Notes: generated by a model from the letters alone, not told the origin. A stretch of 64,000 nt of DNA from a virus (IMGVR_UViG_3300029786_000322), one strand, 5' to 3'. Positions 3,759-62,872 are shown, counted from the first letter of the stretch. Numbers and translations: made by a program.

Positions 3759-3992
3759 GTTGCACCACGCAAGGGTGCAGGGGTGAAATATTATACTGAA
3801 TCGTCGCTGCCTGCATAGATATAGTTGCATCCCTTATGGGATGTATGGGTTGAAATTCAATAGAAACAGATGCATTCGGAGGTGTTACAAGTTGCACCCC
3901 CGCAAGGGGTGCATGGGTTGAAAATAAGAAATGGTAGGAAGGAATTCAGATATGAACATTAGTTGCATCCCGCAAGGGTGCAGGGGTGAAGT
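3759..3992 (+). CRISPR. mini CRISPR array A: 4 type I-C-like repeats, 3 spacers of 33-35 nt
   Basis: Repeats at 3759-3789, 3824-3856, 3891-3925 and 3962-3992. They keep GTTGC...(G/T)GGTTGAAAT ends, but each has a different palindromic stem. Spacer 2 recurs in array D. Confidence 0.7.
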
Positions 3993-4151: not shown

Positions 4152-4799
4152 ATGTCAAAAACAAAAGGACTATCAAAGAAGAAAAAATTACTAAAAACGC
4201 TCATACATAAATACCTTCCATTGCAGGTACTACTTACTGTCTTTTTGTATGCAGTAATTGTATTTATTAACATTCCAATTAATAAATGGCTTACTCTCAA
4301 CTGTCAGAAATGGTCAAGTGGGGAATATCATTTTTATGATGCATTTTTTATTCTTCCATTTGCTGAACTGTTAATTTTTGCCATTATGTCTGCCGTTATT
4401 TGCGCTGTTTATTATTTTGTCAGTGGAATAATCGCATATAGGAATTACTGTTACATTCCACTTACAGAAGATGAAATCAAGAAAAAAGGATTTAAAAATG
4501 CAGATGAGTATTTTGCTTATGTGTGCAACATGTGTTCTTATGGTTTTAAAAATAATAAAGACTACATTCTTGTTGGTGATGAAGACCTCCAAAAAATGTT
4601 AACTACCTGTCTGCAGGTATTTCCTGATAATGGGACAATTTTTGGAATAAACCGCCATATGGTACGAAATATCATATGGGATCCTGATTTTCTTTCCGCA
4701 CTTGCACTAGCCAGTGACCAAAGGGCGGAAATCATCAATGGACGTGTTGTATTGTCTGGCACCACAAAAGATGGTGACAGAAAAGAATATAAGATATAA
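4152..4799 (+). CDS. membrane protein with two N-terminal TM helices, array-linked paralog family (copy 1)
   Basis: RBS GAGGGAAAATAATATG. Paralog of 25498-26145 with shared blocks INIPINKWLT and AYRNYCYIPLTEDEIK. Sits directly downstream of array A. Confidence 0.7.
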   Translation: MSKTKGLSKKKKLLKTLIHKYLPLQVLLTVFLYAVIVFINIPINKWLTLNCQKWSSGEYHFYDAFFILPFAELLIFAIMSAVICAVYYFVSGIIAYRNYCYIPLTEDEIKKKGFKNADEYFAYVCNMCSYGFKNNKDYILVGDEDLQKMLTTCLQVFPDNGTIFGINRHMVRNIIWDPDFLSALALASDQRAEIINGRVVLSGTTKDGDRKEYKI

Positions 4800-5073: not shown

Positions 5074-5406
5074 ATGTCAAAGAAAAAAATATCAAAAAAG
5101 AAAAATGTATTAAAGGTGTTATGGAATGAGTGTATAACATTCAAGGTGTTAATTTTTATCATAGCATATGTAGTGCTTGCGTTTATTAATATGCCATTTG
5201 AAAAATGGCTCTCACTTTATTTCGAATGGGAAAAATTAAAGGATTATCAAGAAGTATTCATGGAGGAGATAACATTATTAGTAATTCTCCCTCTCATGGA
5301 GATAGCTGCTGTTGCATTAATTTGTTTTATTATCTATGAGTTTTTTTGCTCTGTCAGTAAGATGATTGCATCTGATGAAGTAATTTCGATTGAAAAGGAA
5401 GAATGA
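5074..5406 (+). CDS. truncated paralog of the array-linked membrane protein (N-terminal TM part only)
   Basis: MSKKKISKKKNVLKVLWNEC matches the N-terminus of 25498-26145. RBS ATAGGAGAAATAGTACATG. Confidence 0.55.
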   Translation: MSKKKISKKKNVLKVLWNECITFKVLIFIIAYVVLAFINMPFEKWLSLYFEWEKLKDYQEVFMEEITLLVILPLMEIAAVALICFIIYEFFCSVSKMIASDEVISIEKEE

Positions 5407-13950: not shown

Positions 13951-14002
13951 GAAAGAAGCCGTGGAATCCCGACTTTTCTGCTGCATTGTGTGTATATTTT
14001 AA

Positions 14003-14075
14003 CGCCGCCTGCGGGATTCGAACCCGCGGATAAAGAGTTCAAAGCTCCCTGCGTTAACCTTTTCGCCAAGGCGGA
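14003..14075 (-). tRNA. tRNA-Gln(TTG), provisional
   Basis: T-arm GCGGG-TTCGAAT-CCCGC, anticodon loop CTTTGAA, U1 as in Gln tRNAs. Acceptor pair 1-72 is mismatched. Confidence 0.5.
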
Positions 14076-14076
14076 G

Positions 14077-14144
14077 CACACCCGGAAGGACTCGAACCCT
14101 CGTTACCGGTTTTGGAGACCAGTTTCTGTCCATCAGACAGGTGC
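14077..14144 (-). tRNA. tRNA-Trp(CCA), provisional (short D-arm)
   Basis: Anticodon arm CTGGT-CTCCAAA-ACCGG identical to the canonical Trp arm. T-loop TTCGAGT. Acceptor GCACCTG/CGGGTGT has two G-U pairs. Confidence 0.5.
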
Positions 14145-14148
14145 ATAA

Positions 14149-14219
14149 CAGGCGATAATGGAATCGAACCATTGTTTTCTGAGTCAGAATCAGATGTCTT
14201 ACCATTGAACGAATCGCCC
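14149..14219 (-). tRNA. tRNA-Gln(CTG), provisional
   Basis: Anticodon arm TCTGA-TTCTGAC-TCAGA, T-arm AATGG-TTCGATT-CCATT. Confidence 0.55.
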
Positions 14220-14221
14220 AG

Positions 14222-14295
14222 TATCCCCAAAGGGACTCGAACCCTTAACCGACAGATTAGAAATCTGTTGCTCTTTCCAATTGAGCTATGGGGAT
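14222..14295 (-). tRNA. tRNA-Arg(TCT)
   Basis: Acceptor ATCCCCA/TGGGGAT, D-stem GCTC/GAGC, anticodon arm ACAGA-TTTCTAA-TCTGT, T-arm AAGGG-TTCGAGT-CCCTT. Confidence 0.7.
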
Positions 14296-14301
14296 ATATA
14301 G

Positions 14302-14391
14302 CGCAGACACCGGGGATCGAACCCGGACAGCGGGTGTGCCGCATGCCACATTAGCAGTGTGGAGGGGTACCATTTACCTTTATATGTCTGC
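14302..14391 (-). tRNA. class II tRNA-Ser(GCT), provisional
   Basis: 90 nt. Anticodon arm CCACA-CTGCTAA-TGTGG, long variable arm GCGG..CCGC, T-arm CCGGG-TTCGATC-CCCGG, acceptor GCAGACA/TGTCTGC. Confidence 0.55.
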
Positions 14392-14396
14392 ATAAG

Positions 14397-14468
14397 AGGC
14401 ATCGGAGGGGATCGAACCCTCGCCTTCCGGGTTGCAGCCGGACGCCTTCGCCGTTTGGCTACGATGCC
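14397..14468 (-). tRNA. tRNA-Cys(GCA)
   Basis: Acceptor GGCATCG/CGATGCC, anticodon arm TCCGG-CTGCAAC-CCGGA, T-arm GAGGG-TTCGATC-CCCTC. Confidence 0.7.
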
Positions 14469-14498
14469 ATATAATTCTTCCCGATAAGAGAAGATGAG

Positions 14499-14582
14499 CG
14501 CTGGGGCAGGGAGTCGAACCCTGATATCCTTTCGGAATGACGGTTTTCAGGACCGTTGCTTTACCAGTTGAGCCACCACAGC
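14499..14582 (-). tRNA. class II tRNA-Ser(TGA), provisional (C33, one acceptor mismatch)
   Basis: 84 nt. Anticodon arm ACGGT-CCTGAAA-ACCGT, variable arm TCC-GAAA-GGA, T-arm CAGGG-TTCGACT-CCCTG. Confidence 0.5.
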
Positions 14583-14827
14583 AAAAATAAAAGCATACAC
14601 CTCTCAATCGAAAGATGTATGCTTTGCAATTCCAGGTATTTCCAATATTCTCCCGGAAATTTCCCTACAATGACCACATTTCTTTCAATTTGAGACAATA
14701 TTTATTTGCACGACAACTACGCCAGATACATGACTGCGACTGACTCATACTTGCCTGTGAATATTGTCTCATTACTGCTGTAATCATTGATTTTCCCTTC
14801 CTTTCCTTGGTTTTCTTGAATATTTAG

Positions 14828-14901
14828 TGTGTCTGGTGGGACTTGAACCCGACGACCCCACGATTAAAAGTCGCGTGCTCTGCCAACTGAGCTACAGACA
14901 C
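14828..14901 (-). tRNA. tRNA-Lys(TTT)
   Basis: Acceptor GTGTCTG/CAGACAC, D-arm GCTC-AGTTGGCA-GAGC, anticodon arm CGCGA-CTTTTAA-TCGTG. The T-stem has a 1-nt bulge. Confidence 0.65.
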
Positions 14902-14906
14902 ATAAG

Positions 14907-14978
14907 CGGATCAGGAGGGAATCGAACCCTCATCTTCCGGTAGACAGCCGGATGTACTAGCCGCTATACTACAGATCC
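14907..14978 (-). tRNA. tRNA-Asp(GTC), provisional (U37, one acceptor U-U)
   Basis: Anticodon arm TCCGG-CTGTCTA-CCGGA, T-arm GAGGG-TTCGATT-CCCTC. Confidence 0.55.
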
Positions 14979-14982
14979 ATAA

Positions 14983-15055
14983 AGCTCCCGTCCGGCTTCG
15001 AACCGGAAACCTTCTGATTACAAGTCAGATGCACTACCAGTTGTGCTACAGGAGC
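14983..15055 (-). tRNA. tRNA-Thr(TGT)
   Basis: Acceptor GCTCCTG/CGGGAGC, D-stem GCAC/GTGC, anticodon arm TCTGA-CTTGTAA-TCAGA, T-arm TCCGG-TTCGAAG-CCGGA. Confidence 0.7.
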
Positions 15056-15139
15056 AGGAACACTTCCGACGGGTGCTGCCCCGCTATCTCCGCCGTGACA
15101 GGGCGGTGACTCTGTTGTTTGTCCTCGGAAGTAAATAAG

Positions 15140-15221
15140 TGCGCCGGGGAGGACTCGAACCTCCGGTGTTTCTTTGTGGCTGATTTACAGTCAGCTGCTG
15201 TCGCCTCTGAGCCACCGACGC
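15140..15221 (-). tRNA. class II tRNA-Tyr(GTA)
   Basis: Anticodon arm GCTGA-CTGTAAA-TCAGC, long variable arm, T-arm GGAGG-TTCGAGT-CCTCC, acceptor GCGTCGG/CCGGCGC. Confidence 0.7.
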
Positions 15222-15226
15222 ATAAG

Positions 15227-15298
15227 CTGGTCCGGAGGGTCTCGAACCCTCAACGCCCCGGTTAACAGCCGGGTGCTCTACCATTGAGCTACGGATCA
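15227..15298 (-). tRNA. tRNA-Asn(GTT)
   Basis: D-arm GCTC-AATGGTA-GAGC, anticodon arm CCCGG-CTGTTAA-CCGGG, T-arm GAGGG-TTCGAGA-CCCTC. One A-C acceptor mismatch. Confidence 0.65.
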
Positions 15299-15299
15299 G

Positions 15300-15371
15300 A
15301 GCATGTGACGGGTCTCGAACCCGCCCGTCCTGCTTGGAAGGCAGGTGTGCCGCCAACAACACTTCACATGC
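15300..15371 (-). tRNA. tRNA-Gly(TCC)
   Basis: Acceptor GCATGTG/CACATGC, anticodon arm CCTGC-CTTCCAA-GCAGG, T-arm GCGGG-TTCGAGA-CCCGT. Confidence 0.7.
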
Positions 15372-15436
15372 ATGCGGATAAAAGAAGTGCCTGTTTTCTC
15401 TTATCCATTCAGTTTTTTTACCGCATCGCTGCGGAG

Positions 15437-15508
15437 TGGACAGGAGTGGTAACGATCCACCCTGTAAGGATTTTCAGTCCTTCGCTAATCCATCTCAGCT
15501 ACCTGTCC
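15437..15508 (-). tRNA. tRNA-Phe(GAA) with an atypical T-loop (A54/U58 swapped)
   Basis: Perfect acceptor GGACAGG/CCTGTCC, D-arm GCTG-AGATGGAT-TAGC, anticodon arm AAGGA-CTGAAAA-TCCTT, T-arm GGTGG-ATCGTTA-CCACT. Confidence 0.55.
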
Positions 15509-16783: not shown

Positions 16784-17116
16784 TTGAAATGTTTGACATG
16801 CAAGAAACACTGGTCGCAGGGAGGCCGCTGTTCAGAGAACGTGAGAAACTGCCTGCATTATGAGGAAGAACCAAGAGGAAAAATGGTCCGCACAGAACTG
16901 TCTTTTCGTATGGATGCAGAGGCGGAAACTCCGGTGGTCAGATTTGGAGAGAAAATACTGGTTTCCGATGGTTCAAAAGCGGTCGAGATGACTGTGGTCA
17001 AGATCAACTGGGTTAATCTTCGGGATATGCTCTGCAATGTATCCGCGGATTATCATGAGAATGAGATGCCGCGATTTGAGAAAGAAAAGAAGTTCAAAGC
17101 ATTACATGGAAAATAG
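16784..17116 (+). CDS. hypothetical protein, 110 aa (TTG start)
   Basis: AAAGGAGGAGG RBS 9 nt upstream of the TTG. The stop codon abuts the first repeat of mini-array B. Confidence 0.5.
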   Translation: MKCLTCKKHWSQGGRCSENVRNCLHYEEEPRGKMVRTELSFRMDAEAETPVVRFGEKILVSDGSKAVEMTVVKINWVNLRDMLCNVSADYHENEMPRFEKEKKFKALHGK

Positions 17117-17222
17117 TTGCATTCCAGTGGAATGCATGGGGTGAAAGAAATAGGCAAATCGCATGACAATTTCTGAAATTAAATTGTTGCGCTCCCGTGG
17201 AGGGGGGCGTATGGATTGAAAT
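17116..17222 (+). CRISPR. mini CRISPR array B: 2 repeats, 1 spacer
   Basis: Repeats GTTGCATTCCAGTGGAATGCATGGGGTGAAA and GTTGCGCTCCCGTGGAGGGGGGCGTATGGATTGAAAT. Begins at the last base of the upstream stop codon. Confidence 0.55.
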
Positions 17223-18810: not shown

Positions 18811-18915
18811 GCTGCATCATGTGCGGGGGTGTATGGATTGAAATGTCGGAGTATGGTGTAAGAATCATATATATTCCTACGTTGTGCTCCTCCCGGTTGG
18901 TGCACGGGTTGAAAT
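18811..18915 (+). CRISPR. mini CRISPR array C: 2 repeats, 1 spacer
   Basis: GCTGCATCATGTGCGGGGGTGTATGGATTGAAAT, a 35-nt spacer, then GTTGTGCTCCTCCCGGTTGGTGCACGGGTTGAAAT. Starts 2 nt after the upstream stop codon. Confidence 0.55.
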
Positions 18916-20506: not shown

Positions 20507-20724
20507 GTTGCGCCCCATTGGGTGCATGGGTTGAAATCTTTATGACCTTCTGAAAAGTGAGGGCATCTTAGTTGCACCCCCGCAAGGGATGTATGGGTTG
20601 AAATTCAATAGAAACAGATGCATTCGAAGGCGTTACAAGTTGCACCCCGCGAGGGGTGTATGGGTTGAAATTGCAGAAAGCTCAGGATTGGAAGGTTGCA
20701 TCCTATGGGATGCATGGATTGAAA
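20507..20724 (+). CRISPR. mini CRISPR array D: 4 repeats, 3 spacers
   Basis: Repeats at 20507-20537, 20571-20604, 20639-20671 and 20695-20724 with divergent stems. Spacer 2 (20605-20637) is near-identical to spacer 2 of array A. Starts 20 nt after the upstream stop. Confidence 0.7.
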
Positions 20725-20764
20725 CGAACATATTTGTTATTATTTATTATTGAGATCAGAAAGG

Positions 20765-20800
20765 TCTGCAGTCAGTTAATCTGGCTGCAGATTTTTTTTG
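20765..20800 (+). terminator. rho-independent terminator
   Basis: TCTGCAGTCAG-ttaat-CTGGCTGCAGA followed by T8. Confidence 0.7.
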
Positions 20801-20828
20801 CAATTTTTTAAAAATTTTCCAAAATCTT

Positions 20829-20855
20829 TTGACGATTTTTTAAAAGGCGCAATAT
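20829..20855 (+). promoter_or_regulatory. conserved promoter-like element copy 7
   Basis: TTGACG-N11-GGCGCAATAT. Its flank CCAAAATCTTTTGAC matches spacer 3 of the main array. Confidence 0.6.
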
Positions 20856-20863
20856 ACATATTG

Positions 20864-21085
20864 AAGGGATAAACAGGGGCTTACCGTTTGTTTCTTCAAT
20901 AAGAGTTTTTCTCTTATATGCCTCCTTAAGTTTCCTGCGCTGCATTTACAGCATTTTGGCAGCGCAGGGGGAATCCACAGGACTGCATTTGACGTTGTGT
21001 GGCGGCCTGCTCATCCGGTTCAACCCCGGAGGATTCCCTTACCGCTTATTTTTGCGGAGACAAAAATTTTAAAAAATATTCAAAA
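20864..21085 (+). ncRNA. candidate small structured RNA between promoter copies 7 and 8
   Basis: No ORF with an RBS. Several strong hairpins, including CCTGCGCTGC...GCAGCGCAGG, GGGAATCC...GGATTCCC and CCGC-ttattttt-GCGG. Confidence 0.35.
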
Positions 21086-21090
21086 ATTCT

Positions 21091-21117
21091 TTGACGATTT
21101 TTTAAAAGGCGCAATAT
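21091..21117 (+). promoter_or_regulatory. conserved promoter-like element copy 8 (cas operon promoter)
   Basis: TTGACG-N11-GGCGCAATAT, 95 nt upstream of cas5. Confidence 0.65.
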
Positions 21118-21170
21118 GTGTATTGAAGGAATAAACAGGGGCTTGCCGCTGTTGATTACCAGAGTTAAAA

Positions 21171-21200
21171 GTTGTGCCCCTATGGGGTGCATGGGTAATA
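21171..21200 (+). CRISPR. solitary degenerate CRISPR repeat in the cas5 5' UTR
   Basis: GTTGTGCCCCTATGGGGTGCATGGGTAATA has the repeat 5' end and hairpin but a degenerate 3' handle. Confidence 0.35.
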
Positions 21201-21210
21201 AGAGAAAGGA

Positions 21211-21885
21211 ATGGAAAAAGAAAAAATGGGAGTGAAACTAAAAGTCTGGGGAGATTACGCATTGTTCACCAGACCAGAACTGAAAACTGAACGGTATACA
21301 TACGATGTGATGACACCGTCGGCGGCTAGAGGAATTCTGGAATCTATCTACTGGCATCCGGGACTTCGGTGGTATGTAGACAAGATTCATGTATTAAATC
21401 CGATTGCCACTACGAGCGTGAGAAGAAATGAACTTCTCAGTAAGATACCAAAGTCAAATATGCTGCAGGCATACAACGGCGGGGATGTGAAACTGTATAA
21501 CTCGTCAAGAGACGATATTATCCAGAGGGCATCTGTTATTCTCCGGGATGTCTGCTATGTGATTGAGGCGCATTTTGAAATGACAGGGAAAGCGAGCCCA
21601 ACAGACAGCCCGGCAAAGTTTATAAGTATCTTTAACAACAGGGCAAGAAAAGGGGCATGTTATTCGATGCCGTATTTTGGTGTAAGGGAATTCCCGGCAC
21701 ACTTTGAACTCTGCGAAGGAGATGAAAAGATCCCATCCTACTATGAAGGACTTCCGGATAAAGATCTCGGGCTGATGCTTTATGATCTGGATTACTCCTG
21801 CGGTAGAGATATCCAGCCAATGTATTATCATGCGATTATGAAAAACGGCGTTATTGACGTTGGGAACAGTGAGGTGCTTCGATGA
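21211..21885 (+). CDS. cas5: Cas5 (type I-C Cas5d, crRNA-processing subunit)
   Basis: N-terminal LKVWGDYALFTRPE...SAARGILESIYWHPG is the Cas5d signature. The stop overlaps the cas8c start (ATGA). Confidence 0.9.
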   Translation: MEKEKMGVKLKVWGDYALFTRPELKTERYTYDVMTPSAARGILESIYWHPGLRWYVDKIHVLNPIATTSVRRNELLSKIPKSNMLQAYNGGDVKLYNSSRDDIIQRASVILRDVCYVIEAHFEMTGKASPTDSPAKFISIFNNRARKGACYSMPYFGVREFPAHFELCEGDEKIPSYYEGLPDKDLGLMLYDLDYSCGRDIQPMYYHAIMKNGVIDVGNSEVLR

Positions 21886-23621
21886 TCCTTCAGTCACTTG
21901 TGAAATTATATGAAACACTTGCGGATCAGGGAAAAGTGTCCCGTCCTGGCTGGTGTAATGCAAAGGTATCCTATGCGGTGGTTTTAAACCATGATGGGAC
22001 GATTAAAGATATTGTTTCCGTGAAACAGAAAGTGAAGAGAGGAAAGAAGACTGTTGAAATTCCAATAATTATGCAGGTTCCAGAGATGGTCACCCGCGCT
22101 AACAACATTGCCTCCAGCTTTCTCTGCGAAAATGCAAAGTATCTCTTTGGGATTGACGAAAAGATGAGTTTGCGTACACTGGAATGTTTTAAGGCGGCAA
22201 AGAAAAAACATCTTGATATTCTTGATGTTGTGGATTCACCTGTAGCACAGACGGTATGTAACTTTTTCCGTTCATGGGATCCGGAACAGGCGTTGGATCA
22301 ACCGGCTGTTGCAAAACTTGCAGAAGAGTTTTATAAAGGCGGAAACCTCGTTTTTGAAGTAGATGGGGAATATGTGCATGATAATGAAGAAGTCCGCAGG
22401 GCATGGATGGATTACAGCAGTGTACCATATGAAATGGTAACTGGAAGATGCCTTATTACTGGAGAGGAAGCGGAGATTGCCCGCACGCACGGGAAAATCA
22501 AAGGAGTTCCGGGAGCACAGTCATCTGGCGCGTCGCTTGTATCATTTAACGGAGCATCCCTTGAGTCTTATGAAAAAACACAGAGCTACAACGCGCCGAT
22601 TAGCACCTATGCGGCGTATGCATATGTGACCGCGCTGAATTACTTGCTTTCTACGGACGGGTATCACAGCAAGGTAGGAGATTCCATGGTGGTTTTCTGG
22701 ACAGATTCCGGGGATGTGGATGATGTGAGCAGACTGCGGAAGATGATGGGAAGCATCAATGAAAAGGATCACACCCCTACAGATACGGATGAAAAACTGT
22801 ACGTCCTCTGCCTTGCACCAAATGCCGGGCGAATTGCAGTCCGGTTCTTCTATGAGGATGCGATCGGGGTAATCTGGGAAAACCTGTCCGAACATGCCAG
22901 TCGGATGAAGATTGTAAAACCAGTATTTGAGGATCAAGAATTTATCAATATCTGGCAGATGCTCATGGAGACAGTCAACCAGAATCTTACAGATAAAACA
23001 CCTGTCCCGCATATGTCAGCAATGACGTTACAGTCAGTCATTTCGGATACACCGTATCCGCAGAGTCTGTATGCAGGTGTGTTATCTCGTATCCGCGCGG
23101 AGCACAAAGGTGTTACTTACAGAAAAGCATCGATTATTAAAGCTTTTTTAATAAAGAACTACAAATGGGAGGAAGGAAAAAATATGGAAGCATTAAATGA
23201 AGGCTGTAAGGATCGGGCATATATCCTTGGAAGACTGTTTGCGGTTATGGAAAAGGCACAGAAAGAAGCAGTTGGCAATATCAACCAGACAATTTGTGAT
23301 AAGTTTTACAATTCCGCGTGCACAACACCAAGATCGATCTTTCCAGTACTGATCAGGCTATCTAACAGTCATTTAAGTAAGTTGAAACGGACAAAACCGG
23401 GGAGAGGATATTATTTTACAGCTAAAATGCAGGATTTAATGGATAAAATTCCGGTAACAGATGATGATCCGGGATTCCCGCGGCGTTTCTCATATGAGGA
23501 TCAGGGTAAGTTTGCACTTGGTTATTATCATCAGATGCGGGCGGAATATACAAGCAGTAAGTTAAAAGATAATGATTCAGAAGGTGATCAGACAAATGCA
23601 GAGAATATGGAGGAAAACTAA
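21882..23621 (+). CDS. cas8c: Cas8c (Csd1), type I-C large subunit
   Basis: 579 aa. Its position between cas5 and cas7 and its size fit Csd1. N-terminal MILQSLVKLYETL. Confidence 0.85.
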   Translation: MILQSLVKLYETLADQGKVSRPGWCNAKVSYAVVLNHDGTIKDIVSVKQKVKRGKKTVEIPIIMQVPEMVTRANNIASSFLCENAKYLFGIDEKMSLRTLECFKAAKKKHLDILDVVDSPVAQTVCNFFRSWDPEQALDQPAVAKLAEEFYKGGNLVFEVDGEYVHDNEEVRRAWMDYSSVPYEMVTGRCLITGEEAEIARTHGKIKGVPGAQSSGASLVSFNGASLESYEKTQSYNAPISTYAAYAYVTALNYLLSTDGYHSKVGDSMVVFWTDSGDVDDVSRLRKMMGSINEKDHTPTDTDEKLYVLCLAPNAGRIAVRFFYEDAIGVIWENLSEHASRMKIVKPVFEDQEFINIWQMLMETVNQNLTDKTPVPHMSAMTLQSVISDTPYPQSLYAGVLSRIRAEHKGVTYRKASIIKAFLIKNYKWEEGKNMEALNEGCKDRAYILGRLFAVMEKAQKEAVGNINQTICDKFYNSACTTPRSIFPVLIRLSNSHLSKLKRTKPGRGYYFTAKMQDLMDKIPVTDDDPGFPRRFSYEDQGKFALGYYHQMRAEYTSSKLKDNDSEGDQTNAENMEEN

Positions 23622-23622
23622 G

Positions 23623-24534
23623 ATGAGCACACCAATTAAGAACAGATATGATTTCGTAGTATTATTCGACGTAGAGAATGGAAATCCGAACGGTGATCCG
23701 GATGCCGGAAATATGCCGAGAGTTGATCCAGAGACTGGCATCGGGCTTGTGACAGATGCCTGCATAAAGCGCAAGATCCGTAATTATGTGGAAACTGTAA
23801 AAGAAGATGCAGCCGGGTTCAAGATCTATATTAAAGAGGGGGTCCCGCTGAACCGGAGTGACCTTAAGGCAGTCGAAAGTCTTGGTATTGACGTCGGTGA
23901 CGACAAAAATGCACTTGAAGATGTAAAGAAGCTGAAAAAGACAGATGAAGATGTGGATCTTAAGCTCCGTGACTATATGTGTAGTAATTTCTATGATATC
24001 CGTACATTTGGTGCTGTCTTGACTACCTTTACAAAGGCGGCATTAAACTGTGGGCAGGTACGTGGCCCGGTACAGATTGGTTTTGCAAAAAGTATTGATC
24101 CTGTTTTCAGCCAGGATATTACTGTAACCAGAGTTGCAATCACAACGGAAAAGGATGCGGAAAAGAAAAATACAGAAATGGGAAGAAAGAGTATTATTCC
24201 TTATGGACTTTACCGTGTGGAGGGATATATTTCTGCTAATCTTGCCCGTAAGACCACCGGCTTTTCTGAAGACGATCTGGAACTGCTTTGGGAAGCAATC
24301 ATTAACATGTTTGAGAATGACCATTCCGCAGCACGCGGGAAGATGGCAGTGCGTGAGCTCATCGTATTCAAGCATAACAGCGAGCTTGGCAATTGTCCAT
24401 CGTACAAACTGTTTGAAACTGTTGATGTTAAGAAGAATGATGGTGTTGAGTTTCCTCGTAAATATTCCGATTATGCAGTGACTATTCATGAGGATGCGAT
24501 TCCGGATGGCGTGACAATGACTCGCAAAATCTAA
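23623..24534 (+). CDS. cas7: Cas7 (Csd2), type I-C backbone subunit
   Basis: Start at MSTPIKNRYDF with a GGAGGA RBS. DVENGNPNGDPDAGNMPR is the Csd2 signature. Confidence 0.9.
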   Translation: MSTPIKNRYDFVVLFDVENGNPNGDPDAGNMPRVDPETGIGLVTDACIKRKIRNYVETVKEDAAGFKIYIKEGVPLNRSDLKAVESLGIDVGDDKNALEDVKKLKKTDEDVDLKLRDYMCSNFYDIRTFGAVLTTFTKAALNCGQVRGPVQIGFAKSIDPVFSQDITVTRVAITTEKDAEKKNTEMGRKSIIPYGLYRVEGYISANLARKTTGFSEDDLELLWEAIINMFENDHSAARGKMAVRELIVFKHNSELGNCPSYKLFETVDVKKNDGVEFPRKYSDYAVTIHEDAIPDGVTMTRKI

Positions 24535-24784
24535 AAAGATTTCCAGAGATTACAAGGCAACCCGCGTTTTGCGGGCTGCATCTGCTTGGGTTATGCCGAA
24601 ATGTAGAATTCCGGTGCGAACTGAAAGCTTACATAGCTTCTCTGGGAGACTCGCACCGGAAATGGAGGTATTAGTGTACAAAAAGAACACAAAACCCAAC
24701 TGTATAAGGCCGTTTGAGAACAATTAATTAGAGGAATTGTTTATATTTTGGCGATCGGGAGAGTTGTTTCTGTTCACTTTTACA

Positions 24785-25482
24785 GCTACGCCCCATGGAG
24801 GGGCGTATGGATTGAAAATGATTGTTATTGTTTTTTATTCATGGAGAGGAAAGCTACGCCCCATGGAGGGGCGTATGGATTGAAAAGTAAGGTTTCGTCT
24901 CGAAGCCTTTATTCTGTTTTGCTACGCCCCATGGAGGGGCGTATGGATTGAAATACCAAAATCTTTTGACATTCTTATAAATGGTAACAGCTACGTCTTA
25001 TGGGGTACGTATGGATTGAAATCATAATAATTGTAGAGATCTCAATACAAAATAAAGCTGCGTCTCATGGAATACGTATGGATTGAAATGAAAAGGCGAG
25101 TTTGCGAAAGCAGATATTGGAATGTTGCGTCTCGTGGAGTACGTATGGATTGAAATTCCAACTTTAACTACATAACTATCCTGATAAACTTGCTGCACCC
25201 CATGGAGAGTGTATGGATTGAAATTTAAAAAATCATGGATAACATCTGCGATAAGACGTTGCACCTCGCTAGGGGTGTATGGGTTGAAATTTCCATAATC
25301 GGTAGCCAATTATTATCATTAGGTGTTGCACCCCATAGAGGGTGTATGGATTGAAATTATATAAAAATGATGAATATGTAAAAAAAATAAAAGAGTTACG
25401 CTCCATGGAGTGCGTATGGCTTGAAACCTCTTATTTTTTTAAAGATATCACAATTACGCCCAAAGTGGGCTTACGTAAATTT
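24785..25482 (+). CRISPR. main CRISPR array: 10 repeats of 33 nt plus a degenerate terminal repeat, spacers of 33-37 nt
   Basis: Repeats at 24785, 24853, 24921, 24990, 25057, 25124, 25192, 25258, 25325 and 25395. A degenerate eleventh sits at 25454-25482. The first three are identical (GCTACGCCCCATGGAGGGGCGTATGGATTGAAA). Later ones keep the GYTRC 5' end and TATGGATTGAAAT 3' handle but have different, internally complementary stems. Confidence 0.85.
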
Positions 25483-25497
25483 AAAGGAGAAAAGTAC

Positions 25498-26145
25498 ATG
25501 TCAAAAACAAAAGGAATATCAAAAAAGAAAGATATATTAAAGGTATTTTGGAATGAGTGTGCAGTATTTAAGGTAGTTGTTTGTATTCTTGCGTATGTGA
25601 TACTCGGCTTTATCAATATACCAATTAACAGGTGGCTTACATTTCATGTACCTAAATGGTCAGATGGGAAACTACATGATATAACAGGATCATTTTTTGT
25701 TCTTCCTATCCTTGAAGTATTAGCGGTCACTTTAATTTATCTTATCGCTAATGGATGCTTTTATTTCATCAGCAAGATGATCGCGTACAGGAATTACTGT
25801 TACATTCCGCTTACGGAAGATGAAATTAAAGGAAAGAAATTTAAGAATGCAAATGAGTATTTTTCCTATGTCCTCAATGTCCTTTCCTATGGTTTTAAGA
25901 ATGAAAAAGAAAATCTCCAGGTTAGTGATGATGATCTTCGAGAAATGCTTATAACTTGTCTGATTGTATTCCCTGATAATGGGACAATATTTCAGATAAA
26001 ACCAGAAACTGCGTGGAATGTTTCAGACGACATCCTTTTCTCCGAAGCCGTTGAATTGAATTGCGGAAAAGCAGAAATAATTGATAAGCATGTTGTATTG
26101 TCTGGTGATAATAGAAACGGCAAAAGAGAAGAATATACAGTGTGA
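25498..26145 (+). CDS. membrane protein with two N-terminal TM helices, array-linked paralog family (copy 2)
   Basis: Paralog of 4152-4799. RBS AAAGGAGAAAAGTACATG. Starts 16 nt after the terminal degenerate repeat. Confidence 0.7.
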   Translation: MSKTKGISKKKDILKVFWNECAVFKVVVCILAYVILGFINIPINRWLTFHVPKWSDGKLHDITGSFFVLPILEVLAVTLIYLIANGCFYFISKMIAYRNYCYIPLTEDEIKGKKFKNANEYFSYVLNVLSYGFKNEKENLQVSDDDLREMLITCLIVFPDNGTIFQIKPETAWNVSDDILFSEAVELNCGKAEIIDKHVVLSGDNRNGKREEYTV

Positions 26146-32332: not shown

Positions 32333-32524
32333 TTTCTTGCGGAGCAGAGCAGAGGAAGGCTCACCGGGCTCATGACCTGGGTGTCGGATGTTCGATTCCT
32401 TTCTCCGCAATTAATTTTAAAAAAGGGAGGTTATAACATGTTCTAACTGATTAGAAAACATAAACAAGCATTCGTTCAAAAGAAAGATTCGTATGTGAAA
32501 AAAGGATGGGAGGAAAAGAAAATC

Positions 32525-41257: not shown

Positions 41258-41402
41258 TATAATGAATTACGTTTTAAATTTATGGCGAAAAATCCACAGG
41301 CTTGCCTGTGGGATGAAAGCTACATTTTTCACTTACTTGTTTCAACAGTTGGACACATAAGTGAAACTACAGTGATCAAATACATTGAGGAGCAGAAAAC
41401 AC

Positions 41403-42791
41403 ATGGATGCTGACGAGTACAAAAAACTTCTGAAAAAATTTCATAAACTTTCTGACAGGCATATCCTGGTCGCTGAGACGGATATGTCTTATCCTGATGT
41501 GCAGAAGGTCGTAAATTTCTCCGGCAGGATCCGGAAAGCTGGCAATGAGCTTGTTGGTGTCATGAAAAAGAATTATGAACAGCTCATGCGTACCAAAAAG
41601 TACCGCAAGATGCTCCAGCTGTATGGCTCCACTGAGGACAAAAACAAACGCAAAACATATGCCGGACAGCTCAACGAAATGCAGGAACAGTATAATCTCA
41701 CAAAGGAGTCCTGCCGGACGTTGATGATACCCATTGGCAAGAAGTACGGCATTGATGCCATATTTGCCCTCGCGAAAGCCGAGGACGTGTGGCGAGGTGT
41801 TGAAAAATGCCTTTACGGGAATGGAAGGATGCTTCATTTCTCCAGATATGGAGACTTTCCATGCATCAGGGCAAAGCAGATCAACCGCGGCGTCCCGATG
41901 CCCGTAAAAAACGATGAACTGAAGTTTAAGCTGGGAAAATTAGTTTTCGGGATACAGGTCAAAGACCGGTTCCAGACAGACGAAGTCAATGCCGTCCTGG
42001 ATTATCTGGCACAGCCGGAAGTCATAGACAACAAGGCAGTAAAGACTCTTCAGGATGAAGCGTGCTGTATCAGCACGTACCGGCCTTGCTACGCAACGCT
42101 CGTACCGAAATTCATCCGTGGGAAATACAGGGTGTACCTGCATCTCGTCATCGAAGGAAAGGCAAAACCGAAGTACGACAGTTCCGGCAATCCGCGGCAT
42201 AAATACGGCAGGGGCGTCGTTGGTGCGGACATTGGCACACAGACGATAGCCTATACTTCCGATACAGAGACAGGACTTAAAAACTTATCGGAAAGAGGCA
42301 ACAGCATACAGAAATCCGAACGTCTGGAAAGACTGTATTACCGCGCCATGGACCGAAGCAGACGTGCCACGAATCCGGAGAATTACAACGCCGATGGCAC
42401 CATTAAGAAAGGGAAGAAGAAGTGGACTTACTCCAGGCATTACAAAAAGCTGAAGGCAAAACATGCGGAACTCTGCCGCATAAATGCCACAAACAGGCAG
42501 CTTGCCATAAATGAGGATGTAAACCACCTGCGTTGTCTCGGAGATACATTTGTCACGGAACCTAAAAATGCAGCCAGGCTCATGAAACGGGCGAAAGAGA
42601 CAACTGTTAATAACAAAGGCAAGATCAACAGGAAGAAACGTTTTGGAAAGTCGGTAAAGAACCGGTGCCCGGGCGGTTTCCAGGCTGCCGTGGAAAATAA
42701 GTTCAAAACATCCGGCGGTACATATATAGAAGTACCCAATAATTACAGGGCAAGCCAGTATGACCACACGGCAGATGATTACATAAATTAG
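41403..42791 (+). CDS. tnpB: TnpB-like RuvC-fold protein, truncated by an insertion (lacks RuvC-III and the C-terminus)
   Basis: RuvC-I VVGADIGTQTIAYTSD and the central region FQAAVENKFKTSGGTYIEVPNNYRASQYDH. The frame stops right after a 217-bp segment that is repeated at 43153-43370. Confidence 0.6.
   Translation: MDADEYKKLLKKFHKLSDRHILVAETDMSYPDVQKVVNFSGRIRKAGNELVGVMKKNYEQLMRTKKYRKMLQLYGSTEDKNKRKTYAGQLNEMQEQYNLTKESCRTLMIPIGKKYGIDAIFALAKAEDVWRGVEKCLYGNGRMLHFSRYGDFPCIRAKQINRGVPMPVKNDELKFKLGKLVFGIQVKDRFQTDEVNAVLDYLAQPEVIDNKAVKTLQDEACCISTYRPCYATLVPKFIRGKYRVYLHLVIEGKAKPKYDSSGNPRHKYGRGVVGADIGTQTIAYTSDTETGLKNLSERGNSIQKSERLERLYYRAMDRSRRATNPENYNADGTIKKGKKKWTYSRHYKKLKAKHAELCRINATNRQLAINEDVNHLRCLGDTFVTEPKNAARLMKRAKETTVNNKGKINRKKRFGKSVKNRCPGGFQAAVENKFKTSGGTYIEVPNNYRASQYDHTADDYIN
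42570..42788 (+). repeat. direct repeat copy 1 (about 217 bp, tnpB internal segment)
   Basis: Near-identical to 43153-43370. The two copies flank a roughly 365-bp insert. Confidence 0.7.
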
Positions 42792-45941: not shown

Positions 45942-46040
45942 GTTGCACTCCCGCGGAGGGGGTGCATGGATTGAAATCGACTTTCGAAACGGTAATTGGA
46001 TTTTACTACGCTGCGTCCCCGCGAGGGGCGCATGGATAAA
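45942..46040 (+). CRISPR. mini CRISPR array G: 2 repeats, 1 spacer
   Basis: GTTGCACTCCCGCGGAGGGGGTGCATGGATTGAAAT, a 32-nt spacer, then GCTGCGTCCCCGCGAGGGGCGCATGGATAAA. Confidence 0.5.
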
Positions 46041-46064
46041 GAAACAGGGAAAGGGAGGGAACGT

Positions 46065-46463
46065 ATGAGTATATTACAAAATGTTGTCGATGAGTATACA
46101 AAAGATTACCATCCGACGGAGAAGCAATTGGATACGGTGGACGAACTTTATACAAACAATAGGGAATTGGATGTTGGTAAGTATTACGGTGATGCCTCAA
46201 TGGTTATCGGTGGAGCAAGAGGAGATATAGCTGCAATGGAAACGATCGCAGGTGTTTGCGCCCGCCTTTGTACAAAACCAGAGGAGGATATGACGGCGGC
46301 TCCGCAGATTGCGGCAGGTGTGCATGCCCGCTGGCCTGACGAGCAAATGGTTCTTTCAAAGGCGGACGGCGGGATGTCGTTTTCTACAAAAATGGATGTT
46401 GTTCGGACGTGTTTTAACGAGAATGACGTGCAGGTTGTGATTGATCCGAAGAGGGAGGTTTGA
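46065..46463 (+). CDS. hypothetical protein, 132 aa
   Basis: GGGAGGGAACGTATG RBS. Lies 25 nt downstream of mini-array G. Confidence 0.5.
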   Translation: MSILQNVVDEYTKDYHPTEKQLDTVDELYTNNRELDVGKYYGDASMVIGGARGDIAAMETIAGVCARLCTKPEEDMTAAPQIAAGVHARWPDEQMVLSKADGGMSFSTKMDVVRTCFNENDVQVVIDPKREV

Positions 46464-62780: not shown

Positions 62781-62872
62781 GTTGCATCCCTTATGGGATG
62801 TATGGGTTGAAATGCAATCAGGCTGCGGATGCTACCGGCTTGTTGCGCTTTATGAGGCGCATGGATGGAAAT
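62781..62872 (+). CRISPR. mini CRISPR array H: 2 repeats, 1 spacer
   Basis: The first repeat, GTTGCATCCCTTATGGGATGTATGGGTTGAAAT, is identical to repeat 2 of array A. The second is GTTGCGCTTTATGAGGCGCATGGATGGAAAT. Confidence 0.55.

Follow-up and report, generated by a model that had tools for sequence, protein, structure and literature searches.

A Cas3-less type I-C CRISPR module with a growing main array on a large mobile element from the human gut

Main finding

A very large mobile element of the human gut encodes only that part of a type I-C CRISPR system which binds DNA, together with a main array that, as read from related strains, is still growing; the missing enzymes must come from elsewhere. 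The window, that is, the whole stretch of DNA analysed here (64,000 nucleotides of IMGVR_UViG_3300029786_000322), was combined with 10 kb of upstream and ~8 kb of downstream flank, which gave ~82 kb of a 200–376 kb replicon. Besides a Cas3-less set of cas genes, the analysis revealed seven arrays, ongoing polarized acquisition, and two spacers with TTC-flanked targets in other gut mobile elements. With moderate confidence, we consider it a working, trans-dependent type I-C module of effector plus memory for conflicts between mobile elements.

The cas operon and its products

The operon and its upstream region comprise the following features.

21064..21148, + strand: conserved promoter-like element, the second copy of an 85-nt duplicate, with the core TTGACG-N17-GCAATAT at 21091-21117
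21171..21202, + strand: solitary, degenerate hairpin of repeat type within the cas5 5'UTR (GTTGTGCCCCTATGGGGTGCATGGGTAATAAG; covariance model 28.5 bits, E 2e-6)
21226..21885, + strand: cas5c, for the Cas5d-family pre-crRNA endonuclease subunit (219 aa; TIGR01876 and PF09704)
21882..23621, + strand: cas8c/csd1, for the large subunit (579 aa; TIGR01863; PF09709 over residues 6-554)
23184..23621, + strand: internal cas11c reading frame, inside cas8c (145 aa; GGGAGG Shine-Dalgarno at 23167)
23623..24534, + strand: cas7/csd2, for the backbone subunit (303 aa; TIGR02589 and PF05107)

A preliminary description of this DNA had proposed an operon of only three Cascade genes, and NCBIfam profile searches bear this out with scores far above the cut-offs: 176 bits versus 85 for Cas5c (TIGR01876), 400 versus 219 for Cas8c/Csd1 (TIGR01863), and 342 versus 182 for Cas7/Csd2 (TIGR02589). 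The start of cas5c at 21226 agrees with the gene calls; the ATG at 21211 is an unlikely start, because a divergent lineage has indels of 1 and 4 nt between the two ATGs. Cas5c aligns with the D. vulgaris enzyme (8dex_A) at E 2e-65, and the EAHFE motif is found in both. No Cas6 occurs among the best 25 of the 28 Pfam families matched by the 125 window ORFs, the other three families ranking below a best E-value of ~1.5e-4. The same description had named the Cas5d-family protein as the crRNA processor, and its closeness to the active D. vulgaris enzyme makes pre-crRNA processing by Cas5c likely.

Identity to the Roseburia homologues is 62% for Cas5c, 78% for Cas7 and ~50% for Cas8c, the last being also the level reached by the closest bacterial homologues of Cas8c. 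Bacterial pairs of Cas8c/Cas5/Cas7 share ~65/80/88%, as against 50/62/78% between the element and Roseburia, and by this comparison Cas8c has not diverged out of line with Cas5 and Cas7. Cas8c residues 439-559 can be aligned to residues 4-120 of 7kha_K, a Cas11c chain deposited separately, with M435 falling at the start of the chain, and a GGGAGG Shine-Dalgarno stands 11 nt upstream of the internal ATG; Cas11c is probably translated from this conserved internal start, as in type I-C systems. An identical Cas8c protein is encoded by 889 contigs, the longest of 375,736 bp, and the 3.3-kb cas region of 11 strains has only four variable sites, all synonymous. Judged by these comparisons, the cas genes are intact and highly conserved.

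It had also been suggested that the operon is driven by a promoter of the element's own, and a repeated promoter-like unit does precede it. This element is 87% identical to the copy at 20802-20886, its core (TTGACGATTTTTTAAAAGGCGCAATAT) has 11 copies in the window, each of them on the + strand, versus 0 expected, and it is kept upstream of cas5 in the divergent lineage. A generic sigma-70 scan made no call at 21064..21148, which we presume to be the promoter of the cas operon. The hairpin in the cas5 5'UTR lies at the same position in 10 strains; in the divergent lineage the stem is retained with changed base pairs (GCATC..GATGT). It is a candidate binding or processing site for Cas5c.

Genes missing from the locus

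In the 64-kb window, tblastn with the Roseburia type I-C Cas3, Cas4, Cas1 and Cas2 proteins gave a best E of 0.36, and HD/Cas3, Cas1, Cas2 and Cas4 families are missing from the same best 25 of 28 Pfam families of the 125 ORFs. The absence of these genes from locus and window, as first described, is thus upheld, and none was found in the 10-kb upstream and ~8-kb downstream flanks either. No HD, helicase or HNH fusion was found in Cas5c and Cas8c, which are fully covered by their own models; an HD or helicase domain fused to cas8c had been named as evidence that would overturn the proposal, and the profile search shows Cas8c covered end to end. The sole large helicase of the window is RadD/phrog_16-like, has no HD domain and lies 17.6 kb from the operon, and no DinG or other accessory helicase is linked to the cas module. 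In all six bacterial relatives inspected, cas3 is directly upstream and cas4-cas1-cas2 directly downstream of the Cascade genes, and the locus of the element therefore looks like a clean deletion derivative. The four genes may lie elsewhere on the replicon, beyond the ~82 kb read.

Leader, repeats and arrays

The leader and the seven arrays are located as follows.

24535..24784, + strand: leader, 250 nt, with the hairpin GGTGCGA..TCGCACC at 24613-24657
24785..25427, + strand: main CRISPR array F, 10 repeats of 33–34 nt and 9 spacers (F1-F9)
3759..3992, + strand: mini-array A, 4 repeats, the outer two degenerate
17116..17222, + strand: mini-array B, 2 repeats and 1 spacer
18811..18915, + strand: mini-array C, 2 repeats and 1 spacer
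20507..20725, + strand: mini-array D, 4 repeats and 3 spacers, the last spacer of only 23 nt
45942..46043, + strand: mini-array G, 2 repeats and 1 spacer
62781..62872, + strand: mini-array H, 2 repeats and one 28-nt spacer, followed by a hairpin and a T-run

The leader folds moderately better than shuffled sequences (z -2.6). The arms of its hairpin are invariant in 3 complete bacterial type I-C loci, in which the distance to the first repeat is similar. A terminator scan found no terminator-like site in the interval from cas7 to the array. The structured leader announced in the preliminary description is therefore there, with a length of 250 nt and not 245; its single array is real too, but understates the total, which amounts in the window to 27 repeats in seven arrays plus the lone 5'UTR hairpin, all on the + strand and with the arrays spread over at least 59 kb of the element.

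A covariance model search of the window fits all 27 repeats to a single hairpin model (E 3e-6 to 4e-13). Covariation is seen in the stem, with 90.8% of cells paired and double changes in 21 cells versus 7.9 in shuffles. As far as such covariation can tell, the variants of the repeat hairpin are maintained through compensatory changes. In array F the three repeats at the leader end are identical, and the older ones are each different. The Roseburia repeat (GTCGCTCCCCTTGTGGGAGCGTGGATTGAAAT) has the same handle-forming 3' end as the repeats of the element.

The six mini-arrays are fixed among strains, except that mini-array D has lost two units in one strain. Mini-array D directly follows a 290-aa ORF and is itself followed by a terminator-like hairpin (20758-20798); its spacer 2 is nearly copied as spacer 2 of mini-array A. 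The second repeat of mini-array G is degenerate in its 3' part and precedes the Shine-Dalgarno of a gene starting at 46065.

Spacer acquisition and targets

Relative to the spacers F1-F9 of the window, eight strains have an extra spacer, N0, at the leader end of array F, and two lineages bearing N0 have one further leader-end spacer each, different from one another. Every unit so added among near-identical strains has an identical repeat. A more divergent lineage has only the trailer spacer in common, with four leader-end units that carry a uniform repeat of their own. Read across these strains, array F is gaining spacers in a polarized, leader-end fashion, and type I-C adaptation proteins would therefore act in trans or from a distant site of the replicon. 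The label 'adaptation-less' hence suits the gene content but not the behaviour of the array. For the adaptation step, borrowing is favoured over transcriptional interference, the other option that had been raised.

Spacer F2 (24887-24920) matches IMGVR_UViG_3300011989_000479 over 34/34 positions beside a 5'-TTC PAM; the search imposed no PAM, which makes F2 the sole independent PAM observation. Its protospacer lies ~100 bp upstream of a replication-initiator gene, and integrases are encoded on the same target element. For N0, two metagenome contigs gave 35/35 matches after TTC, the TTC here being imposed by the search pattern. Both known targets are on other gut mobile elements, within or between ORFs; one of them is in the middle of an ORF of unassigned function, and the two are on opposite strands relative to their genes, with no promoter enrichment. 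Six of the eight spacers scanned in public collections had no target: the viral contigs gave none for F3, F5, N1, N2 and P1, and the genome collection none for the A2/D2 spacer of the mini-arrays. Seed-plus-PAM matches did not exceed chance, either within the element or across five type I-C loci of Roseburia type. Taken together, these matches speak neither for nor against the transcriptional interference that had been proposed. On the evidence of these matches, array F gains TTC-flanked spacers against other mobile elements.

The carrier element

Carrier contigs reach 376 kb (375,736 bp) and are binned with Roseburia faecis. The carrier is taken to be an extrachromosomal element of 200–376 kb, and this MAG binning and the similarity of the Cas proteins point to human-gut Lachnospiraceae as its probable hosts. 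No host type I-C locus with leader-end repeats matching those of the element was found.

The carrier had been called phage-like, a view that the sequence at hand does not bear out. Terminase, major capsid, portal and tail genes were not found in the ~82 kb, about a quarter of the replicon, and no structural genes occur among the 25 listed of 53 PHROG families (125 ORFs) or the ten largest ORFs of 29-46 kb; over this quarter, nothing marks the carrier as a tailed (jumbo) phage. The window encodes a PcfJ-like protein, and a Mob_Pre relaxase follows shortly after its downstream end. Among the families listed, the only transposases of the window are IS605 OrfB/TnpB-like and far from the cas operon.

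The carrier may be a 'Hodor' megaplasmid. Hodors are human-gut conjugative megaplasmids of 211-389 kb that were first mistaken for huge phages and commonly carry TnpB; their description mentions, without analysing it, a type I-C system whose array is called 'degraded' (Yuan et al. 2026 preprint, PMC12934698). Size range, gut habitat and TnpB content agree, and a 'degraded' array would fit the diversified repeats of the element, although the latter keep their hairpins by covariation and are not degraded. The window differs in GC content (39.5% vs 44.6-47.1% for Hodors), and the Mob_Pre relaxase downstream of it contrasts with the reported lack of canonical relaxases in Hodors. None of Rep_3, ParA/ParB/ParM, VirB4/VirD4/VirB6 (T4SS), sortases or giant surface proteins was found in the 82 kb seen.

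Comparison with known systems

Type I-C is indicated by Cas5c, Cas8c/Csd1 and Cas7/Csd2 being encoded together, by ~32-nt hairpin repeats ending in ATTGAAA(T/C) with 33-37-nt spacers, and by the 5'-TTC motif adjacent to the F2 protospacer; the Cas3 HD-helicase and the Cas4-Cas1-Cas2 adaptation module of a type I-C locus were not found in the ~82 kb searched. Canonical systems (Desulfovibrio/Nitratidesulfovibrio vulgaris; Roseburia and other Lachnospiraceae) carry these three effector genes in an identical order, and share the internal Cas11c start, a Cas5c that probably stands in for Cas6, the TTC PAM, the conserved leader hairpin and a hairpin repeat of 32-34 nt with the ATTGAAA(T/C) end. Unlike them, the element has no upstream cas3 and no downstream cas4-cas1-cas2, its repeats are individually diversified where canonical ones are uniform, and it has a 5'UTR repeat and six additional mini-arrays dispersed along its length; its module is also borne by a mobile element, whose own repeated promoter-like unit precedes the operon.

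Huge phages have CRISPR-Cas systems without adaptation and/or interference genes, including a type I-C variant of Biggiephage with a helicase replacing Cas3 (Al-Shayeb et al. 2020, PMC7162821). Those systems resemble the present one in their metagenomic carriers of >200 kb, the lack of Cas1, Cas2, Cas4 and a recognizable nuclease, the compact arrays, the spacers against competing elements, and the two modes of action proposed, in which either host Cas proteins are used or targets are repressed. The element differs in that no replacement helicase is linked to its operon (the RadD-like one is 17.6 kb away), no phage structural genes occur in ~82 kb, and there is direct evidence of ongoing polarized acquisition.

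Plasmid type IV-A3 systems acquire spacers in trans through host Cas1/2e (Benz et al., bioRxiv 10.1101/2023.06.23.546257). They too combine effector and array on a large mobile element without adaptation genes and have spacers against rival elements, and their array is updated by the adaptation complex of a host type I system, as that of the element would be; the likeness in trans acquisition is functional and not a claim of family. The element has a type I-C Cascade, no Csf proteins and no DinG that could be found, and repression, demonstrated for IV-A3, is conjectured for it. Haloarchaeal proviruses carry type I-B systems without adaptation genes, a case of 'adaptive outsourcing' (Naki and Gophna 2025, PMC12596717); they lack cas1, cas2 and cas4 and are believed to depend on a complete system of their own subtype present in the same cell, but they retain the Cas3 that is missing here and differ in subtype and domain of life.

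Among type I derivatives that have no Cas3 but another output are CASTs (I-F3, I-B2, I-C, I-D) and the HNH-fused I-E2/I-F4 (PMC12669027, PMC11656645), which likewise place a Cas3-less Cascade on a mobile element. A type I-C CAST was rejected: no TnsA, TnsB, TnsC or TniQ occurs among the 25 of 28 Pfam families listed, no rve-family transposase is near the operon, and, unlike in CASTs, the spacers point to other mobile elements and not to attachment sites. The HNH-fused types were rejected as well, Cas5c (219 aa) and Cas8c (579 aa) being fully explained by their own models.

Proposed function and alternatives

What follows on expression, crRNA processing, the origin of the adaptation proteins and the way interference works is inferred from sequence. 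Under the trans-dependent reading favoured above, the element would supply the effector (Cas5c, Cas8c with the internal Cas11c, and Cas7) and the memory (the evolving array and six fixed mini-arrays). Cas5c would cleave the repeat hairpins into crRNAs with a canonical 5' handle (...AUUGAAAU), and Cascade would bind TTC-flanked protospacers of rival mobile elements that enter or share the cell. Spacers would be inserted at the leader end by type I-C Cas1-Cas2-Cas4 encoded away from the module, most probably by a host chromosomal type I-C system with the same repeat 3' end and leader hairpin. For the killing step, Cas3 of the same host may be recruited, which we propose with modest confidence; in hosts without a compatible Cas3, the bound complex would be a roadblock only. 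As Cas8c is only ~50% identical to Roseburia Cas8c, compatibility with the host Cas3 is not assured. Moreover, in a host with a full type I-C system the element could make do with arrays, so that its keeping a Cascade of its own points to a function independent of Cas3 or to hosts without such a system.

One alternative is natural CRISPRi, in which Cascade never recruits Cas3, its stable R-loop silences rivals or blocks their replication and transcription, as in type IV-A3 plasmid systems, and acquisition alone is borrowed from the host. No cas3 within ~82 kb, the retention of a Cascade of its own rather than arrays alone, and the position of the F2 target just upstream of a replication-initiator gene, a core function of the sort that type IV-A3 represses (10.1101/2023.06.23.546257), would all suit binding-only interference; repression was proposed by Al-Shayeb et al. 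for nuclease-less huge-phage systems (PMC7162821), and nuclease loss is recurrent in CRISPR systems captured by mobile elements (PMC11656645). We nevertheless regard it as somewhat doubtful: only two targets are known, one in mid-ORF, on opposite strands relative to their genes and without promoter enrichment, no DinG-type helicase is linked to the module, and Cas8c is not unusually diverged relative to Cas5 and Cas7. Should cas3 and cas4-cas1-cas2 instead be encoded over 10 kb away from the operon, but still within the 200-376 kb of the replicon, the system would be complete but split. About a quarter of the replicon is visible, the scatter of arrays over at least 59 kb suggests that dispersal of components is habitual in this element, and polarized acquisition means that adaptation proteins are available; should the carrier be a Hodor, the neighbourhood of its conjugation genes would encode an HD-domain protein and, separately from it, a helicase, which in Hodors were read as a MOBH-like relaxase module (PMC12934698). 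Such a split is nonetheless unlikely, given that neither window nor flanks contain the four genes, that these are contiguous with the Cascade genes in 6/6 bacterial relatives, and that the one large helicase of the window resembles RadD/phrog_16 and lacks an HD domain.

Phages and plasmids are known to counter host defence with lone repeats and mini-arrays that imitate the repeats of the host, the Racr and Cracr RNAs, which act via host Cas proteins and of which Cracr spacers partly match promoters of host cas or toxin genes (PMC10651486; 10.1101/2024.10.29.618823). The repeats of the element might similarly titrate or reprogramme host type I-C Cas proteins and so shield the element, its cas genes being secondary. 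The fixation of six mini-arrays among strains and the short spacers of two of them (23 and 28 nt) are in keeping with such decoys, but the element encodes a conserved Cascade of its own, its main array gains TTC-flanked spacers against other elements, and neither the five Roseburia-type cas loci nor the element itself has a seed-plus-PAM match above chance, which makes this account highly improbable.

A more specific conjecture, which we put forward as rather unlikely, is a Cas3-free type I-C 'programmable repressor' that borrows only host Cas1-Cas2-Cas4. The hairpins within its own transcription units (the operon-end mini-arrays and the cas5 5'UTR) would double as processing or feedback sites for Cas5c, through which genes of the element are controlled, or as fixed guides against conserved host targets. 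If true, the module would be a type I counterpart of type IV-A3.

An intact effector module and its promoter

The element carries intact and conserved type I-C effector genes, constrained repeats and an array with polarized acquisition; perfect TTC-flanked targets of its spacers exist in other mobile elements, and no cas3, cas4, cas1 or cas2 was found in ~82 kb. The three effector genes, cas5c, cas8c and cas7, are co-directional, overlap or abut, and together span 21226-24534; they are followed by a leader and ten repeats ending at 25427. The cas5-cas8c-cas7 operon with array put forward in the preliminary description is thus real, as all three products lie far over their NCBIfam cut-offs: Cas5c (TIGR01876, 176 bits, cut-off 85), Cas8c/Csd1 (TIGR01863, 400 bits, cut-off 219; PF09709 over residues 6-554 of 579) and Cas7/Csd2 (TIGR02589, 342 bits, cut-off 182). 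Cas5c can be aligned from end to end with 8dex_A, the pre-crRNA-processing enzyme of D. vulgaris (E 2e-65). Separately deposited Cas11c chains align with the C-terminal 145 residues of Cas8c, and since their start corresponds to Met435, with a GGGAGG Shine-Dalgarno sequence 11 nt 5' of this codon, the small subunit Cas11c probably arises through internal initiation, like its counterparts elsewhere in type I-C. Most gene callers start cas5 at ATG 21226, and in a divergent lineage indels of 1 and 4 nt fall between this codon and ATG 21211, which is therefore an unlikely start. The leader after cas7 was correctly described as structured (fold z -2.6), but it measures 250 nt, not 245.

Across the 3.3 kb of cas genes, the window and ten near-identical strains differ at only four sites, all synonymous. 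Decay or artefact was rejected, given that the genes are intact and identical over hundreds of samples and that the repeat hairpins are kept by compensatory change. At only 3.3 kb of protein-coding DNA, the module has practical appeal as a basis for compact type I-C tools.

The operon had been attributed to one of the element's own promoters, and a predicted promoter of this type indeed lies upstream of cas5, at 21091. It is one of eleven that the window holds, each on the + strand and in the same direction as the genes, with a common layout of an A-rich tract, TTGACG, 17 nt, GCAATATGT and a conserved initial transcribed stretch. None of the eleven was called by a generic sigma-70 scan, and they may be read by an element-specific factor.

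Promoter-like element, starts of the TTGAC core (+)
1040, 3654, 9816, 12603, 16729, 17629, 20829, 21091, 44099, 48510, 57412

Between the two copies upstream of cas5, a stretch of ~200 nt (20860-21070, +) folds at -79 kcal/mol (z -4.98 against shuffles) and ends in a weak hairpin and T-run. Rfam gave no match for it, finding only tRNAs across the window; on its predicted fold it is a candidate small RNA beside the cas operon.

Absence of cas3, cas4, cas1 and cas2

The proteins of a complete Roseburia type I-C locus (L011; gene order cas3, two small ORFs, cas5, cas8c, cas7, cas4, cas1, cas2, array) were used as tblastn queries against the window. Its Cas5, Cas8c and Cas7 matched at 62%, 50% and 78% identity, respectively; for its Cas3, Cas4, Cas1 and Cas2 the best E was only 0.36. 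A Pfam run on 125 ORFs (+ strand, at least 75 aa; - strand, at least 105 aa) returned no HD/Cas3, Cas1, Cas2, Cas4, Cas6, Tn7-type or DinG family among the best 25 of 28 families, the other three ranking lower, with best E values weaker than ~1.5e-4. Neither the 10 kb upstream (L015) nor the ~8 kb downstream (L020) yielded cas3, cas4, cas1 or cas2, and the absence of these genes asserted for locus and window was borne out over the ~82 kb that include the flanks. In all six bacterial relatives inspected, cas3 lies just upstream and cas4-cas1-cas2 just downstream, so the reduction is specific to this element. Two other apparent parallels were dismissed: the GenBank phage MT836695.1 has an ordinary complete type I-C locus, cas3 through cas2, and two Cas8c homologues on long contigs (P0117, P0077) belong to ordinary chromosomal loci with the full gene set.

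Other candidates for the missing nuclease also fell away. Among the operon neighbours, five ORFs (290, 118, 242, 215 and 174 aa) were checked for a hidden effector; none emerged, and no nuclease domain was recognized at E up to 0.1. An SF2 helicase of 767 aa (1281-3584, +) has ResIII and Helicase_C domains, with phrog_16 'DNA helicase' (2.5e-77) as its best match and RadD (6jde) at the top among solved structures; its C-terminal part of 430 aa is unassigned, and Pfam found nothing in the last 394 aa. It was rejected as a Cas3 substitute because it is without HD and Cas3 models match it at the generic SF2 level only. The helicase gene is followed by a promoter-like element and then by mini-array A (3759), an adjacency that may be coincidence.

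Structured repeats scattered through the element

A single array had been described. The main array, F, stands, but the repeat system is much larger: a covariance model derived from the element's own repeats detected 27 copies (E 3e-6 down to 4e-13) across the window, without exception on the + strand, distributed over F, six mini-arrays and one lone copy.

Repeat arrays found with the covariance model
3759-3992 (+), array A
17116-17222 (+), array B
18811-18915 (+), array C
20507-20725 (+), array D
21171-21202 (+), lone degenerate repeat copy
24785-25427 (+), main array F
45942-46043 (+), array G
62781-62872 (+), array H

The stems vary between copies yet stay paired (90.8% of cells, against at most 70% in slid controls), with 21 cells changed on both sides versus 7.9 +/- 2.8 in shuffles, and the 3' end ATGG(A/G)TTGAAA(T/A/C) is nearly invariant. 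'Degraded' is therefore the wrong word for these repeats, whose hairpin and handle are constrained. The mini-arrays are positioned at transcription-unit ends and are the same in ten strains, the sole exception being one strain that has two units of D fewer. Spacers A2 (3857-3890) and D2 (20605-20638), 16.7 kb apart, are the same spacer with 2 mismatches; GTDB genomes yielded no target for it.

The lone copy stands 24 nt upstream of the cas5 start. In the divergent lineage it is kept in position with a different but still paired stem, and this conservation suggests a Cas5c binding or cleavage site in the gene's own 5'UTR. The lone copy and the copy at 46010-46043 have intact hairpins and altered 3' parts (ATGGGTAATAAG and ATGGATAAAGAA, respectively), and both stand directly before ribosome-binding sites, of cas5 and of a gene starting at 46065. 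Their placement hints that Cas5c cleavage or binding might shape mRNA 5' ends.

Directly 3' of arrays A and F lie genes for ~215-aa membrane-protein paralogues (4152-4799 and 25498-26145, +) that are 51% identical, with a third, shorter paralogue at 5074-5406 (+); none of the three has a Pfam family. Array and membrane-protein gene could represent a duplicated 'array plus gene' unit.

Leader-end growth of the main array

Array F exists in four states among the window and the ten strains. The window has spacers F1-F9; in eight strains a single spacer, N0, is added at the leader end, and in two N0 is joined by a further spacer, a different one in each. Every added unit has the same repeat, GCTACGCCCCATGGAGGGGCGTATGGATTGAAAA; the older repeats all differ. 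In the divergent lineage, marked by the Cas8c variant P0125, the only shared spacer is the trailer-end F9, with 4 mismatches, and four leader-end units combine unrelated spacers with the lineage's own uniform repeat. Variation at the leader end only, duplication of the first repeat and a common trailer are, as read from these arrays, the signature of Cas1-Cas2 integration. If loss alone were assumed, the number of events would be higher, and the array would still have had to acquire spacers earlier. The term 'adaptation-less' thus holds for gene content in ~82 kb but not for the array, which has gained spacers in a polarized manner at its leader end, between strains and between lineages.

The leader contains a hairpin (24613-24657, GGTGCGA ... 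TCGCACC). The leaders of three complete bacterial type I-C loci have the hairpin with unchanged arms (L011, at about 14665-14710; L013; L017), and across loci it precedes the first repeat by about 130-170 nt. We know of no description of this hairpin, which in Lachnospiraceae may represent a conserved motif of type I-C leaders. The handle-forming repeat end is common to the Roseburia repeat and the element's repeats. On account of these two shared features, the module appears to derive by deletion from a Lachnospiraceae type I-C locus, retaining what an adaptation complex would need.

Spacer targets

Spacer F2 (24887-24920) matches an IMG/VR contig (IMGVR_UViG_3300011989_000479) at 34 of 34 positions, directly 3' of 5'-TTC; the site is in a small ORF ~100 bp upstream of the replication-initiator gene of an element that also carries integrases. 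N0 matches two metagenome contigs at 35 of 35 positions after a TTC that was imposed by the search pattern, inside a 227-aa ORF without known function. As neither target locus has repeats, both sites are protospacers, not arrays; they lie on opposite strands relative to the local genes. BLAST of all 19 window spacers against GenBank phages gave no match, nor did searches of viral contigs for N0, the F3 core, N1, N2, F5 and P1, or of GTDB genomes for F2. Conversely, of 111 spacers in three bacterial type I-C arrays, none matched the element beyond short stretches expected by chance. Nothing spoke for Cracr-type targeting of host cas promoters: in five Roseburia-type loci, seed matches reached 10 nt at most, which is chance level.

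Spacer F3 (24955-24989) apparently covers the upstream tract, -35 box and spacer region of an element-family promoter. It shares 15 identical bases (CCAAAATCTTTTGAC) with the promoter-like copy at 20829 and differs in its 3' half. Self-regulation by F3 is a weak proposition: each of the element's 11 copies has at least 10 mismatches to it and is flanked by TTT, ATT or CTT instead of TTC, and in a PAM-plus-seed scan of ~82 kb of the element, matches were no more numerous than with shuffled spacers. Given these mismatches and flanks, a related element is the more likely donor, although the donor was not found. The spacer record could serve to map conflicts between gut mobile elements.

What supplies the missing steps

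Array transcripts would be processed by Cas5c, crRNAs with an 11-nt ...AUUGAAAU 5' handle would be expected, and Cascade would bind the targets. The array would be serviced by a type I-C Cas1-Cas2-Cas4, encoded on the host chromosome or at a distance on the replicon. Identical Cas8c occurs on many 200-330 kb contigs, and the missing cas genes may lie elsewhere on the replicon, outside the roughly one quarter (~82 kb) that was read. Cells supplying type I-C adaptation proteins normally have Cas3 too. Because of this, and because the targets show no promoter bias, we lean towards Cas3 acting in trans, from the host, as the final step. Interference by binding only, without recruitment of Cas3, is well alive: the absence of promoter bias speaks against it, while the element retains its own Cascade and type IV-A3 offers a precedent (10.1101/2023.06.23.546257). 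The element thereby raises two testable questions: whether a chromosomal type I-C adaptation complex services a foreign leader and repeat, and whether a diverged Cascade recruits the resident Cas3 or acts as natural CRISPRi.

Relation to known systems

Mobile-element CRISPR modules without nuclease and adaptation genes are known in outline, and to our knowledge clear natural evidence of ongoing updating in them is rare outside type IV-A3. What this module adds is that adaptation can be read clearly from natural arrays although adaptation genes are lacking locally, together with the unusual dispersal of structured repeats over the element. CRISPR systems of huge phages that lack adaptation genes, and often a nuclease as well, were described in 2020 with both modes proposed (PMC7162821). 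Acquisition in trans has been demonstrated for type IV-A3 (10.1101/2023.06.23.546257) and proposed for a haloarchaeal provirus type I-B system (PMC12596717). Cas3-less Cascades also occur in CASTs and HNH-fused variants (PMC12669027), neither of which applies to this module.

The carrier element

The exact Cas8c is present on 889 contigs of up to 375,736 bp, labelled at NCBI as Roseburia faecis and Lachnospiraceae MAGs. The element is very common in the human gut, and its type I-C history can be read from the trailer spacer that lineages share, the leader-end spacers that set them apart, and perfect matches, flanked by TTC, in other gut elements. That it is 'phage-like' is unproven. Phage structural genes were not found in the window (125 ORFs; best 25 of 28 Pfam and best 25 of 53 PHROG families), and just downstream (L020 15378-19981, ~3-8 kb past the window's 3' end) are a Mob_Pre (MobV-type) relaxase, a 547-aa ORF and a RecJ-like DHH/DHHA1 protein. 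The predicted relaxase speaks for a plasmid-like or mobilizable nature. Similarity search found no close relatives in GenBank phages, PLSDB plasmids or IMG/VR. Hodors are human-gut conjugative megaplasmids of 211-389 kb, first collected as huge phages, in which TnpB is common; the 2026 preprint on them also mentions a type I-C system whose array it calls 'degraded' (PMC12934698). This element is possibly a Hodor or a close relative, though its window GC of 39.5% is lower than reported for them. The module is of a kind already known in outline, possibly sighted in the Hodor preprint, and is here well documented.

The window also holds several DNA methyltransferases, TnpB-like ORFs, and YopX and PcfJ domains. 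IS605 OrfB/TnpB-like ORFs lie at 41385-42791 and 57486-59015 (+); in the window as a whole three ORFs match phrog_506, and PF01385 and a Cas12f1-like TNB domain are present. These relatives of RNA-guided nucleases are dispersed over the element and show no linkage to the type I-C module. There are about 13 tRNA genes, comprising a cluster at 14002-15508 (- strand) and a lone tRNA-Met at 32337-32411 (+), the cluster being oriented against nearly all protein-coding genes.
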